A stretch of DNA of 63,222 bases, the filler included, from Deltaproteobacteria bacterium (GTDB lineage: Bacteria; JACQOV01): the NCBI GenBank assembly GCA_016202395.1. It is 3 parts of 3 records of this genome, joined end to end, with 100 filler letters (N's around TTAATTAATTAA, not from the genome) between each part and the next. Parts side by side here need not be neighbours in the genome. Positions count along the whole stretch, not along the records: positions 1 to 26,003 come from JACQOV010000078.1; 2 more parts are not named here. One strand, given 5' to 3'. The first letter of the stretch is position 1. Every line of letters starts with the position of its first letter. This document shows, piece after piece, positions 1,038 through 54,819 of the stretch. A program made the position numbers and the translations under genes. The notes beneath the pieces are model-generated. The model ran no database searches. It worked only from the letters and a program-made list of their open reading frames with translations, and was not told the origin of the DNA.

Positions 1038-1906
1038 AGCGATTACGCGAAGAATTAAGTTCCGGAAAATTTGTCATCACCTGCGAATTCAGCCCTCCCA
1101 AGGGGACTGATTTAGGTCCGACCTTAGAAAAAGTAAAAAAACTTAAAAACAAAATCGTTGCCATCAACATGACCGACAACAATCGGGCGGTGATGAGGAT
1201 GAGCCCTTTAGGGGCTTGTGTCGCTCTGCTCCAGGAAAGGGTCGATCCGATTATGCAGATTACCTGCCGAGATCGAAACCGGATGGCAATCCAATCGGAT
1301 CTGTTGGCCGCCTCCGCTTTAGGGATTAAAAATATCCTCACTCTTTGGGGAGATCCTATTAAAAATGGAGATCATCCCGATGGAAAAGAGGTCTATGATT
1401 TAAACTCGGCCGGAGATCTTCTGAACGTCATTGCGAAGCTCAACTCCGGGAAAGACTTGATGGGAAATGCCTTAGAAGGCAAGACCGACCTCTTCCCAGG
1501 GGCTGCGGCCGATCCAGGCGCTCCCCTAGACAAACATATTCCAGGGATGGAGAAAAAGATTGAGGCAGGAGCTCGATTTTTCCAAACGCAGGCTTTTTAT
1601 CAATTCGACAAATTTGAACGATTCATGGAGAAAGCGGCTCCTTTAAAAGTGCCGATTATCGGAGGGATCATTCTTCTTAAATCGGTAAAAATGGCAAACT
1701 TTATCAACCAAAATCTTCCTGGAGTGAAAGTTCCAGAGGCTTTAATAAAAGAGCTGGAGGGCGCAACCGATCCCTTGCGAAAAGGGATGGAAATCGCGGC
1801 TCGGCAAATCCAATTCTTAAAAGGGCTCTGTCAAGGAGCTCACCTCATGACGATTGGACGTGAAGATTTGGTTGGAGAAATTCTCACCATTGCGGAATCT
1901 CTATGA
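1034..1906 (+). CDS. metF: 5,10-methylenetetrahydrofolate reductase
   Basis: [32 protein letters not shown] motifs; ATGA overlap with folD. Confidence 0.9.
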
Positions 1907-3012
1907 CGGAAGTGGCATTAAAAAGAACGCCTCTCTTTGAAGCTCATCAAAAATTGGGAGCCAAGTTAGTGGGGTTTGCAGGTTGGGAGATGCCGGTTCG
2001 TTATGAAGGAACCCTTGCGGAGCATCAGGCTGTGCGCGAGGCTGCAGGCCTCTTCGATGTAAGCCACATGGGGGAGATCTTTGTCACGGGAGAAAATTCT
2101 CTGGAGGCTCTGCAAAGACTCATCCCTAACGATGCCTCTCGGCTGAAAGAAGGGGAGGTTCTCTACACCCCCCTCTGCCGTGAATCCGGGGGAGTTGTGG
2201 ACGATGTCCTTCTTCACCGGATCGCTCTAGATGAATGGTTTTTTTGTGTGAACGCCTCCAATATTGAAAAAGATTTCGAGTGGATCCAATCCAAAATCGG
2301 GGATCGAGCGGAGGTTTTGAACGAAAGCCCCAACTGGGTACAACTGGCGCTTCAAGGACCTCGCTCTGTGGCAATTCTTCAACCCTTAACCCCATTTCTG
2401 CTCAACAACCTTTATTACTACCAATTTGCGCAATGCCGTGTCACCGACGTTCCTGTTATTCTTGCGCGAACCGGCTACACCGGAGAAGACGGTTTTGAAC
2501 TCTACATCCCTAAGGAGAAAGGGCTTTCCCTTTGGAATGCGCTGCTAGAGGCCGGCCAAAAGGAGGGTCTAAAACCGGTGGGACTTGCCGCAAGGGATAC
2601 TCTTCGGTTAGAAATGGGGTATCCCCTTTACGGACACGAGTTGAGTGATACCATTACCCCTCTAGAGGCTGGTGTGGGCTGGACGATCGCTTGGGACAAA
2701 GGCGCATTTATTGGAAAAGAGGCCTTGGAGAAACAGAAAGCGGAGGGGATTGCTCGGAAGCTCATCGGGCTGGAAACAACGGAGGGGATCCCTCGAGAAG
2801 GTTACTCGATTCTGATGGGGGAACAGAAAGTGGGGGAGATCACGAGTGGCACTCACTCCCCTTCCCTTAAAAAAGGGATTGCATTAGGATGGGCGCGGAG
2901 TGAATTTTTGAAGGGGGAGAAGGAGTTTTCGATTGGAATTCGAAACCGACCGGTGGCAGCCAAAAGGGTAAAACCCCCTTTCTGGCCCACCCACGTCCGA
3001 AAAAAAACTTAA
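1903..3012 (+). CDS. gcvT: Glycine cleavage system aminomethyltransferase T
   Basis: FAGWEMP, GLFDVSHMG, RTGYTGEDGFE, ARDTLRLE motifs. Confidence 0.97.
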   Translation: MTEVALKRTPLFEAHQKLGAKLVGFAGWEMPVRYEGTLAEHQAVREAAGLFDVSHMGEIFVTGENSLEALQRLIPNDASRLKEGEVLYTPLCRESGGVVDDVLLHRIALDEWFFCVNASNIEKDFEWIQSKIGDRAEVLNESPNWVQLALQGPRSVAILQPLTPFLLNNLYYYQFAQCRVTDVPVILARTGYTGEDGFELYIPKEKGLSLWNALLEAGQKEGLKPVGLAARDTLRLEMGYPLYGHELSDTITPLEAGVGWTIAWDKGAFIGKEALEKQKAEGIARKLIGLETTEGIPREGYSILMGEQKVGEITSGTHSPSLKKGIALGWARSEFLKGEKEFSIGIRNRPVAAKRVKPPFWPTHVRKKT

Positions 3013-3054
3013 TTTCCTTCTCCCCTTTGGGGAGAAGGTCAGGATGAGGGGGAT
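3011..3054. repeat. Left inverted repeat of the DUF559 cassette, with internal hairpin
   Basis: aatttCCTTCTCCCC-ttt-GGGGAGAAGGtcaggatgagggggat; near reverse complement of 3397-3439. Confidence 0.85.
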
Positions 3055-3412
3055 GATTAGGAAAAATACTAAGTTGAGTAGACTTCTCCGCATAAACCAA
3101 ACCGATGCCGAGAAAAAGCTTTGGTTCATTCTAAGAAATCGACAATTTGAAGGAATAAAATTTAGAAGGCAATTTCCAGTTGGGGATTTTGTAATCGATT
3201 TTTATTCTCCGGCATATAAATTAGGCATCGAAGCCGACGGAGGACAACATTACAACGAGGAAAACCAAGCATTAGATATAAAAAGAACAGAACTCTTGTC
3301 AAAAAATGGAATTAAACTATTAAGATTTAGTAATCATGAAATTTTTACAAATTTTGAAGGGGTAAAACAAACAATCTACGATACATTGAATGAAAAATCC
3401 CCCTCACCTTAA
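3053..3412 (+). CDS. DUF559 (Vsr-like / PD-(D/E)XK) endonuclease domain protein
   Basis: LRxNQTDAExxLWxxLR, KFRRQ, FVIDF, IEADGGQH, D-x2-R, LRFSN motifs; visibly AT-rich; ATG 3053 follows GAGGGGG (alternative start 3044). Confidence 0.9.
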   Translation: MIRKNTKLSRLLRINQTDAEKKLWFILRNRQFEGIKFRRQFPVGDFVIDFYSPAYKLGIEADGGQHYNEENQALDIKRTELLSKNGIKLLRFSNHEIFTNFEGVKQTIYDTLNEKSPSP

Positions 3413-3439
3413 TCCTCTCCCCAAAGGGGAGAGGAAATT
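3397..3439. repeat. Right inverted repeat of the DUF559 cassette, with internal hairpin
   Basis: atccccctcaccttaaTCCTCTCCCC-aaa-GGGGAGAGGAaatt; contains the DUF559 stop codon (3410-3412). Confidence 0.85.
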
Positions 3440-3454
3440 GCTCTGGAGGCGAAA

Positions 3455-3844
3455 ATGAATGTGCAAGCAGACTTAAAATACACCAAAGACCATGAATGGA
3501 TCCGGCTCGAAGGGAAACAGGGGACGATCGGGATCACCGATCACGCCCAGGAAGAGCTTGGCGACATCGTCTACGTAGAGCTCCCCGCGGTGGGACAACA
3601 GATCCAAAAATCCAAATCGCTCGGCGTTGTGGAATCGGTGAAAGCGGTCTCGGAGATCCTGGCTCCGGTGAATGGGAAGGTGGTCGAGGTGAATTCTGCT
3701 CTCAACGGAAAACCGGAGCAGATCAATCAAGATCCCTATGGAAAGGCGTGGATGGTGAAGATGGAGGTTGCCAACCCTTCGGATCTTGACGATCTGATGA
3801 ATGTAGAGGATTACAAAAAATACGTTCAAGAGGAGAAGGCCTAA
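3455..3844 (+). CDS. gcvH: Glycine cleavage system H protein
   Basis: YTKDHEW, GITDHAQ, VESVKA (lipoyl-Lys), INQDPYG. Confidence 0.97.
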   Translation: MNVQADLKYTKDHEWIRLEGKQGTIGITDHAQEELGDIVYVELPAVGQQIQKSKSLGVVESVKAVSEILAPVNGKVVEVNSALNGKPEQINQDPYGKAWMVKMEVANPSDLDDLMNVEDYKKYVQEEKA

Positions 3845-26003: not shown

Positions 26004-26103
26004 NNNNNNNNNNNNNNNNNNNNNNNNNNNNNNNNNNNNNNNNNNNNTTAATTAATTAANNNNNNNNNNNNNNNNNNNNNNNNNNNNNNNNNNNNNNNNN
26101 NNN
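26004..26103. other. Artificial contig linker
   Basis: N-run with TTAATTAATTAA (stops in all six frames) in the middle. Confidence 0.97.
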
Positions 26104-54719: not shown

Positions 54720-54819
54720 NNNNNNNNNNNNNNNNNNNNNNNNNNNNNNNNNNNNNNNNNNNNTTAATTAATTAANNNNNNNNNNNNNNNNNNNNNNNNN
54801 NNNNNNNNNNNNNNNNNNN
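54720..54819. other. Artificial contig linker
   Basis: N-run with TTAATTAATTAA. Confidence 0.97.

Follow-up and report, generated by a model that had tools for sequence, protein, structure and literature searches.

Between gcvT and gcvH of a deltaproteobacterium (assembly GCA_016202395.1), a stretch of 429 bp at positions 3011-3439 is made up of a small nuclease gene of the DUF559 family and two hairpin-bearing inverted repeats; positions refer to the window, that is, the whole stretch of 63,222 nucleotides that was analysed. We consider the chances evenly balanced that these 429 bp are a selfish nuclease-plus-repeat module, an analogue of the repetitive extragenic palindromes (REP) and their REP-associated tyrosine transposases (RAYT) that is built on a hydrolytic nuclease. 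The two repeats match elements of the BoxC/PIT/TMECO type that are dispersed through the same genome, DUF559 genes of other genomes carry comparable ends, and the comparison suggests that the DUF559 family is the missing partner of the BoxC repeats. The pairing is apparently recurrent and undescribed: a search for literature that ties DUF559 or YcjD to palindromic repeats, BoxC/PIT/TMECO or others, with subscription journals and supplements outside its scope, found none. BoxC-type repeats have been known since the 1990s, to our knowledge with neither a function nor a mobilising enzyme, and we know DUF559 proteins as very widespread small 'endonuclease domain-containing' proteins without an assigned function. 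A partnership of the two would resolve both puzzles at once and bring into view a second, mechanistically different gene-plus-repeat symbiosis of the REP-RAYT type. The window offers a particularly clean instance of the pairing, with one gene, exact ends, an apparent insertion in an operon spacer and around 50 gene-less repeats in a small genome.

A DUF559 cassette between gcvT and gcvH

The window joins three contigs end to end, with runs of N at 26004-26103 and 54720-54819, and neighbours across a run are not necessarily neighbours in the genome. In the source assembly (G000; 1.9 Mb in 108 contigs, 89% complete) the cassette sits on contig C58. Three co-oriented open reading frames (ORFs) follow one another on the plus strand, namely gcvT (aminomethyltransferase; 1903-3012; PF01571, E 8.5e-96, and PF08669, E 2.6e-20), the gene for a Vsr-like PD-(D/E)XK nuclease of the DUF559 family (3044-3412; 122 aa; PF04480, E 1.7e-33) and gcvH (3455-3844; PF01597, E 5.4e-47). 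The gap of 442 nt between gcvT and gcvH is taken up almost exactly by the DUF559 gene and the two repeats. The stop codon of gcvT (TAA, 3010-3012) reaches into the start of the left repeat, while the GGAGG ribosome-binding motif of gcvH (3444-3448) is intact just outside the right one, and removing 3011-3439 would leave a spacer of about 15 nt. From this sequence layout we read the 429-bp stretch as a putative self-contained cassette inserted in an otherwise ~15-nt spacer. The GC content falls to 0.305-0.375 over 3000-3499, compared with about 0.53 in the flanks and 0.493 genome-wide.

The arms of the inverted repeat (3014-3054 and 3397-3437) are 41 nt long, 83% complementary and 342 nt apart, and the match extends to 3011-3031/3419-3439. 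Each end has a hairpin of its own with a 10-nt stem, 100% complementary, and a 3-nt loop (3016-3025/3029-3038 on the left, 3413-3422/3426-3435 on the right); the two stems differ in sequence (CCTTCTCCCC vs TCCTCTCCCC) and both are fully paired. In what follows, L denotes the C-rich outer arm, H the hairpin and R the G-rich outer arm. The left end (3011-3054), identified by inverted-repeat and hairpin searches, folding and consensus fit as a BoxC/TMECO-type triplex motif of a rare sub-type, has the H-R layout and reads CCTTCTCCCC-TTT-GGGGAGAAGG-TCA-GGATGAGGGGG, with the hairpin at 3016-3038, a 3-nt spacer and a G-rich third block at 3042-3052. The right end (3397-3439), found by the same searches and by folding, belongs to an abundant sub-type and has the L-H layout: a C-rich block CCCCCTCACC (3399-3408) and a 4-nt spacer precede the hairpin at 3413-3435 (TCCTCTCCCC-AAA-GGGGAGAGGA), the whole being the reverse complement of an H-R motif. 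The cassette as a whole therefore runs H-R, gene, L-H, and its outer blocks face the gene from either side.

Gene and repeats are interlocked. The start codon of the DUF559 gene (3044; ATGAGGGGGATG) lies inside the R block of the left end, its last codons and stop (TCC CCC TCA CCT TAA; stop at 3410-3412) lie inside the L block of the right end, and the repeat arms consequently encode its first (MRGM) and last (KSPSP*) codons. Folded as single-stranded DNA with ViennaRNA, which predicts only the hairpin at each cassette end, the left hairpin reaches -10.9 kcal/mol (z -2.35; 4 of 200 shuffles as good) and the right one -11.0 kcal/mol (z -3.34; 1 of 200). The whole cassette is predicted to form a panhandle with its ends paired over about 40 nt at -58.8 kcal/mol, compared with -40.6 ± 4.65 kcal/mol for shuffled sequences, none of 100 being as good.

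These data bear out the features from which the sequence-only reading had started: an AT-rich DUF559 gene between gcvT and gcvH, imperfect inverted repeats of about 44 bp around it, and in each repeat a 10-bp hairpin that differs from the other and yet remains fully paired. Its description of gcvT and gcvH as normally adjacent holds in part. Of 80 metagenome loci with a GcvH relative, 19 have gcvT directly upstream in the same orientation, at a distance of -30 to +193 nt (median -4); many of the other 61 are short or organised differently, and adjacency is common, not universal.

A role of the hairpins as terminator or attenuator was considered and dropped after Rfam and consensus scans had given no credible terminator. 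No Rfam model came near its gathering score, and the consensus scan of 2800-3700 returned no promoter-like site and a single terminator-like site, which lies on the minus strand inside the ORF and does not exceed shuffled sequences. As the DUF559 gene lies on the operon strand, its expression by read-through from gcvT is the simplest assumption.

The cassette ends belong to a dispersed repeat family

The repeats at the cassette ends consist of three blocks, a C-rich arm that is followed by a loop, a G-rich arm and, after a short spacer, a second G-rich block. Judged by this sequence pattern, they are already described elements of the BoxC/PIT/TMECO triplex-motif family, whose published consensus is CCCTCNCCC-N3-6-GGGNGAGGG-N3-GGGNGAGGG (Holder et al. 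2015, PMC4666352). In its strict form the consensus has 17 strand matches in the genome; a slightly relaxed form, allowing 2 block mismatches, accommodates the left cassette end, and the right end departs from the consensus in its second spacer, which is 5 nt instead of 3 nt long.

Several patterns agree that the repeats form a genome-wide family, which in this respect supports the REP-like system proposed in the sequence-only reading. The motif YCTCCCCNNNGGGGAGR occurs twice in the window against 0.14 expected, a count reached by 1 of 100 shuffles, and at 39 sites in the genome. Full nested palindromes of the form CCCTCAYC...GRTGAGGG number 28, and the two-G-block pattern GGGAGAGGN{2,9}GGTGAGGG has 71 strand matches while its reversed control has none. 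A broader pattern yields 50 hairpin sites (28 L-H-R, 7 L-H, 10 H-R and 5 with H alone), set against a single DUF559 gene, the only one bracketed by the repeat in this manner. Over 38 nt, the right cassette end shares 97% identity with gene-less copies on contigs C108 and C46; for the left end, identity is 90% over 49 nt with a copy on C82 and 95% over 37 nt with one on C95. By sequence, the two cassette ends can be placed in different repeat sub-types, each with other copies in the genome, and this accounts for hairpins that differ and are nevertheless each fully paired. When 200,000 random intervals of 369 nt were drawn from the whole genome, a repeat hairpin lay within 60 nt of both ends in 10 and of one end in 1168.

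Some gene-less copies are of interest in themselves. At C82 11245-11290, an H-R element of the rare sub-type seen at the left end stands alone, directly upstream of the start of a gene for a periplasmic metal-binding protein (ZnuA/TroA-like), in the context ...GGATGAGGGG-TTATC-ATG that is also found at the DUF559 start. C95 34031-34140 is a gene-less inside-out doublet, in which a copy of the right end (44/47) directly abuts a copy of the left end (38/42), and a similar gene-less L-H~H-R doublet lies at C92 1047-1118.

DUF559 genes carry hairpin ends across genomes

For comparison, a panel of 40 genomes was used, each of a different family and related to the source at domain level only; as every genome comes from another family, the sample is a broad one. 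DUF559 was matched in 20 of the 41 genomes (panel and source). Of 30 returned loci, 21 from 12 genomes were used; one locus was dropped with its match 3 nt from a contig end, and eight weak matches (E 1.9e-10 or worse), five of them in open frames longer than 1000 aa. On inspection by eye, nearly all DUF559 loci show a hairpin and then a G-block on the upstream side, with the mirror image downstream, in sequences that vary from locus to locus. The motif detector written for this layout demands a perfect 6-bp C-rich/G-rich hairpin whose loop measures 3-14 nt, followed after 2-11 nt by a G-rich 6-mer.

With this detector, 15 of the 21 loci had the motif upstream and 13 had it inverted downstream; it was present on both sides of the gene in 10 loci and on at least one side in 18. 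Near the gene ends there were 48 motifs in 7,980 nt (6.02/kb), compared with 10 in the remaining 55,630 nt (0.18/kb); counted from the ORF ends, 17 of 21 loci had a motif (4.43/kb vs 0.41/kb). The controls were far lower, with 2 of 29 loci for HNH genes of the same panel (0.28/kb near the ends, 0.03/kb elsewhere), none of 5 for true Vsr genes of the panel (density 0 in both places) and 1 of 80 for gcvH in the metagenome loci (0.03/kb vs 0.01/kb). An independent set was obtained by tblastn of species genomes with the protein of the window, for which the best identities were 39-46% (Xanthobacteraceae, Hyphomicrobiales, Elusimicrobia, Hymenobacter, Clostridia and others). Here 15 of 16 loci were used, a contig of 670 nt being dropped, and 9 of the 15 had the motif (4 on both sides; 2.46/kb vs 0.15/kb); four further loci (L137, L139, L140 and L142) have obvious paired hairpins that escape the detector. 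These counts support the conclusion that DUF559 genes are strongly enriched for hairpin-plus-G-block ends relative to other nuclease genes and to gcvH.

The end sequences appear to go with the cassette and not with the host, a conclusion that is supported by several sequence comparisons. In 20 of 36 loci, the similarity between the upstream flank and the reverse-complemented downstream flank exceeds the 95th percentile of the scores between loci. Where one genome has several cassettes, these show two or three end types (G010, G034, G002, G039 and G003). One end motif of G010, AAGAGGGGNNAGGGGAGTTA, occurs seven times in that genome, twice at the flanks of the gene and once next to a gene fragment, and in none of four other genomes; the six matches of one G002 motif all adjoin three DUF559 copies, again with none in four others, and a third, BoxC-like end motif is common to several genomes. 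Protein similarity and end similarity are correlated over 36 loci (r 0.318, reached by none of 2000 permutations), a value inflated by coding flank and near-identical loci. When the comparison is confined to hairpin and G-block in 22 loci, 4 near-duplicates having been dropped, the Spearman coefficient is 0.36 and is reached by 3 of 5000 permutations. Since related sequences are not independent, this co-variation is supportive, not decisive. Both the enrichment around DUF559 genes and the co-variation with the DUF559 protein for which the sequence-only reading had proposed tests were thus recovered.

Against this background, it seems unlikely that repeat and nuclease have no functional link, with the BoxC-type elements forming an independent REP-like family that is spread by another factor, of the host or otherwise, and settles or is retained at small foreign genes, and with DUF559 being an unrelated accessory nuclease of repair, restriction or defence. 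Such independence would fit two BoxC-rich genomes that have no stand-alone DUF559 gene (G028 and G013), the gene-less copies beside other genes, as in the 5' leader of the metal-binding-protein gene on C82, and inside RHS-type genes, as well as weak matches of the protein to restriction and Dpd nuclease domains in PADLOC (see below). It would also fit the account of Holder et al. 2015 (PMC4666352), who report that they never found transposase or integrase remnants around the E. coli TMECO sites. It is at odds with an enrichment that is specific to DUF559 genes, with the orientation of the G-blocks, which face the gene on both sides, and with end types that follow the cassette instead of the host and co-vary with the protein.

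Cassettes of other build were also seen in the panel. In L045 and L051 (both from G004), a whole L-H~H-R double palindrome of 86 nt lies 5' of the DUF559 ORF and no repeat lies 3' of it; the 74% homology between the copies starts exactly at the outer arm L and ends at the stop codon, and the layout is a circular permutation of that in the window. DUF559 domains with BoxC-type flanks lie within open frames of 1310 aa in L044 (G006:C20) and 534 aa in L043 (G034:C97), possibly as the result of in-frame insertion of cassettes in larger genes. The three cassette copies of G002 (L150, L151 and L046) share homology for about 150 nt past the hairpin ends on both sides, with further short inverted repeats (GGTAATCA...), so that cassette boundaries differ between lineages.

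The DUF559 protein

The 122-residue protein matches PF04480 over profile positions 2-108 of 109 with 115.2 bits (cut-off 20.6). Its Pfam matches are limited to DUF559 and MTES_1575, with neither Vsr (PF03852) nor a known transposase family among them. It reaches 86.4 bits against the NCBIfam model of the YcjD equivalog (NF007294), short of the cut-off of 218 bits, and so does not count as an equivalog of YcjD. Among solved structures, PDB 3hrl is the closest by sequence (E 1.1e-17). In an alignment of 22 homologues, E63, D65, R42, Q43 and eight other positions are invariant, D52 and H69 are conserved in at least 90%, and all of these residues are present here. Acidic residues and histidine among them (E63, D65, D52 and H69) we take, by analogy, to be active-site residues, and the putative active site is apparently intact in sequence.

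The AlphaFold2 model (predicted local distance difference test 86.6, predicted template-modelling score 0.79) points to a restriction-endonuclease-like fold. In a Foldseek search with this predicted model, 3hrl again came first (E 1e-8, template-modelling (TM) scores 0.69/0.89), followed by the catalytic domain of the homing endonuclease I-Bth0305I (3r3p_B; E 9.4e-5, TM 0.60/0.72), then by mitoribosomal proteins, and then by Vsr (1vsr and 1cw0_A; E 0.2-0.34, TM 0.59-0.63). The description of DUF559 as a Vsr-like PD-(D/E)XK family is upheld by the Pfam match and the fold, though Vsr itself ranks below 3hrl and 3r3p. A survey of PD-(D/E)XK proteins likewise groups VSR, DUF559 and DUF2726 with 1cw0, 3hrl and 3r3p (PMC3424549). 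PADLOC gave weak partial matches only, to restriction and Dpd nuclease domains (E 4e-6 and 7e-6), and a literature search for a published nuclease assay on the DUF559 family found none.

Membership in the fold superfamily of Vsr (1vsr, 1cw0_A) is also what speaks for an ordinary enzyme of very-short-patch repair that works with a cytosine methyltransferase and next to which the hairpins would be incidental or regulatory. We regard this as very unlikely, given that the protein has no PF03852 match, that no methyltransferase gene is adjacent, that true Vsr genes lack such flanks in all 5 cases and that the fold search places Vsr after a homing endonuclease.

Proposed mechanism and search for mobility

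In the mechanism that we propose for a selfish nuclease-plus-repeat module, the nuclease would recognise the folded ends, be it as local hairpins, as triplexes or as the panhandle of paired ends, and would cut there; host repair or replication would then copy the cassette or the repeat into the break. Spread would amount to homing-like gene conversion in which the repeats provide homology, and not to strand transfer by a transposase. PD-(D/E)XK enzymes hydrolyse DNA, forming no covalent intermediates and joining no strands, and for this reason break-and-copy spread is favoured over transposase chemistry.

A strict analogue of the REP-RAYT units would instead have the DUF559 protein act like a transposase that cuts the cassette out and inserts it again, and does the same in trans for the gene-less repeats, possibly by way of a circular or abutted-end intermediate. 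The presence of one gene and many repeats in the genome would suit such an enzyme, as would the inside-out copy on C95, the similar doublet on C92 and the permuted cassettes of G004. TnsA of Tn7 sets a precedent for a PD-(D/E)XK protein acting in transposition; it requires TnsB, and a PD-(D/E)XK enzyme on its own does not join strands. The survey cited above tables TnsA as 'Transposase' (PMC3424549). As no target-site duplication is visible at 3011/3439, no circle junction was seen in four sequencing runs (contigs only) and the abutted-end arrangement occurs in only one or two copies in the genome, we judge transposase-like action of DUF559 quite improbable.

The inverted repeats might alternatively serve a programmed inversion switch that flips the gene segment. 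DUF559 proteins are indeed enriched among predicted targets of programmed inversion, with an odds ratio of 14.3 (Milman et al. 2023, PMC9881135). This enrichment comes closest to a published hint of the pairing, and flanking inverted repeats would yield it in any such screen. Here the neighbours are gcv genes with no recombinase gene nearby, the arms are only 41 nt long and 83% matched, and the four runs contain no strand-changing joints, which is weak evidence as they were available as contigs only; a switch of this kind is barely credible.

Direct traces of mobility were sought in several collections. The sequence-only reading had looked to relatives with an empty gcvT-gcvH junction to define the cassette ends, and the search for them came back empty-handed: none of the 40 panel genomes has such a site or aligns across gcvT, cassette and gcvH, and a metagenome scan with GcvH returned no close relative (best identity 59%) and no empty junction. 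In the contigs of four groundwater-metagenome runs from one study, gcvT was never joined to gcvH without the cassette, and only the filled allele was present. Neither an excision product nor a second cassette copy of this organism was found in the collections searched. No direct repeat of at least 3 nt, as a target-site duplication would leave, is evident outside 3011/3439, and a family-level search around the cassette of G039 returned 3 relatives with synteny no further than one gene. Two weak joints in the runs (3050->3400 with 14 other letters, and 3053->3398; sides of 21 and 31 letters) were rejected as excision products, as they look like gene-less H-R/L-H doublets of other sites or organisms, and the very high run depth on the two repeats is attributed to their copy number in the community. 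The earlier proposal of a minimal mobile or selfish unit thus stands as far as dispersed repeats, a single gene and the pairing across genomes are concerned, and falls short in that neither an empty site nor an excision product was found for this copy.

Besides these negative searches, a number of observations weigh against a selfish nuclease-plus-repeat module. A hydrolytic nuclease alone cannot explain insertion. The motif detector was designed after the first flanks had been seen and is in this sense post hoc, and related loci are not independent. Among genomes with at least 9 BoxC matches, 4 of 6 have a stand-alone DUF559 gene, compared with 8 of the other 35, which is a mild association; G028 has 15 BoxC matches at 97% completeness and no stand-alone DUF559, and G013 has 11 with DUF559 only as a weak match inside a frame of 1319 aa. 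We give the flank tests more weight than this co-occurrence at genome level because other cassettes use other end sequences. The end motif of G002 is confined to the vicinity of the gene copies and shows no gene-less spread.

Copy number in the source genome has to be read with similar caution. Fourteen of the 50 hairpin sites lie in frame in paralogues of the RHS/YD type, always between PYGEI and YLYTGQ, where they read ...SPQRGEERGEGAT... and are translated as ...TPHLSSSPQRGEERGEGAT..., with sub-types that differ between paralogues (C59 1497 and 2627; C28 20378, 22714, 42705, 49408 and 50758; C43 1548 and 2786; C5 1484; C26 14885; C104 5956; C106 14718; C73 4208). Part of the copy number is accordingly due to gene duplication and not to insertion, and the shared position reflects either an old insertion inherited by the gene family or a hot spot.

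The E. coli gene ycjD fits the cassette layout poorly as well. Its BoxC element (TMECO #9) lies 168 nt past the stop codon in H-R and not L-H orientation, and with position and orientation both non-canonical, ycjD was dropped as a model case. In K-12 (L022, 1351204-1351830), the gene is followed by a degenerate C/G-rich stretch, a 50-nt duplicate of its own 3' end and then TMECO #9, while on the 5' side a different perfect 16-bp hairpin (CACCTCATTCTGACAA...TTGTCAGAATGAGGTG) overlaps the start. The gene is accessory and single-copy; of 5426 complete E. coli genomes, 3378 have it and 2048 lack it. In O157:H7 and ST131, the site beside fabI holds a TetR-RND segment without BoxC; this segment is the eefRABCD operon, which has been described at this site in other E. 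coli phylogroups (PMC12817139).

Rather doubtful, in our estimate, is the broader reading that DUF559 cassettes are an unrecognised class of mobile elements across bacterial phyla, in which a Vsr-like nuclease of roughly 120 aa would recognise ends that form hairpins or triplexes and would spread itself along with BoxC/TMECO repeats, possibly through a circular or abutted-end intermediate. In the biology of insertion sequences, abutted ends are the trace expected of a circular or tandem intermediate; the inside-out copy on C95 and the permuted cassettes of G004 hint at one, and with one or two cases per genome we treat them as a lead only. If this reading were true, it would explain the origin of the BoxC/TMECO repeats.

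Two Y1-transposase genes with a repeat of their own

The genome also has two genes that match the Y1 transposase family (Y1_Tnp, PF01797), at C28:14371-14700 on the minus strand and at C57:8315-8644 on the plus strand. Each encodes 323-324 aa and is bracketed by its own inverted repeat of the GGGGTCAGACC... type (GGGGTCAGACCTAACTAT / ATAGTTAGGTCTGACCCC and a GGGGTCAG variant), and no BoxC motif was found within 1.5 kb of either. This suggests a separate RAYT-like system in the same genome, and because the Y1 genes carry another repeat and no BoxC, 'RAYT-independent', the label chosen in the sequence-only reading, is a fair one for the BoxC family here.

Comparison with known systems

The cassette resembles miniature inverted-repeat transposable elements and small insertion sequences in that it is small, ends in inverted repeats (41 nt, 83%) and has gene-less derivatives; it differs from them in having no recognised transposase or visible target-site duplication, and in ends that are themselves stable hairpins. 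A reading of the ends as integron attC sites was considered and rejected, since attC is found at a single end of a cassette and its core differs. The homing endonuclease I-Bth0305I of the EDxHD family (PDB 3r3p; Taylor et al. 2011) is the second-best fold match and resembles the DUF559 gene as a selfish nuclease gene at a conserved housekeeping locus. I-Bth0305I is encoded within a group I intron of a phage and has additional regions for DNA binding, whereas the DUF559 gene stands free between gcvT and gcvH, encodes only 122 aa and comes with inverted repeats that form hairpins, a feature for which homing endonuclease genes have no need. YcjD and 3hrl (NGO0050 of Neisseria gonorrhoeae) are members of the same family, and BoxC occurs near ycjD, placed and oriented differently.

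The BoxC/PIT/TMECO elements have the same three-block layout as the cassette ends (Holder et al. 2015, PMC4666352). In E. coli K-12 they form five inverted pairs, each made up of one type A and one type B element, much as two end sub-types are combined in the cassette, and oligonucleotides of E. coli TMECO form an intrastrand triplex in vitro (PMC4666352). That work reports no associated gene or mobility function and places the E. coli copies always in intergenic positions (PMC4666352). Here, unlike there, a nuclease gene has copies of the element as its two ends; of the 50 hairpin sites, 28 are full nested palindromes, the form of most gene-less copies, and 14 are found in frame within RHS-type genes.

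The cassette bears its broadest likeness to the REP systems, with one difference in the enzyme and another in the repeat. REP or REPIN sequences and their RAYT (TnpA-REP, an HUH Y1 protein) make up 'REPtrons', in which a single-copy gene is flanked by inverted hairpin repeats that are also dispersed without the gene. The repeat of the cassette has a third, G-rich block and shows no head motif of the GTAG/CGTC type, and its enzyme is a Vsr-like PD-(D/E)XK protein in place of an HUH Y1 protein (PF01797). As in REPtrons, a single gene is flanked by inverted copies of a dispersed hairpin repeat, and the type of repeat follows the gene copy.

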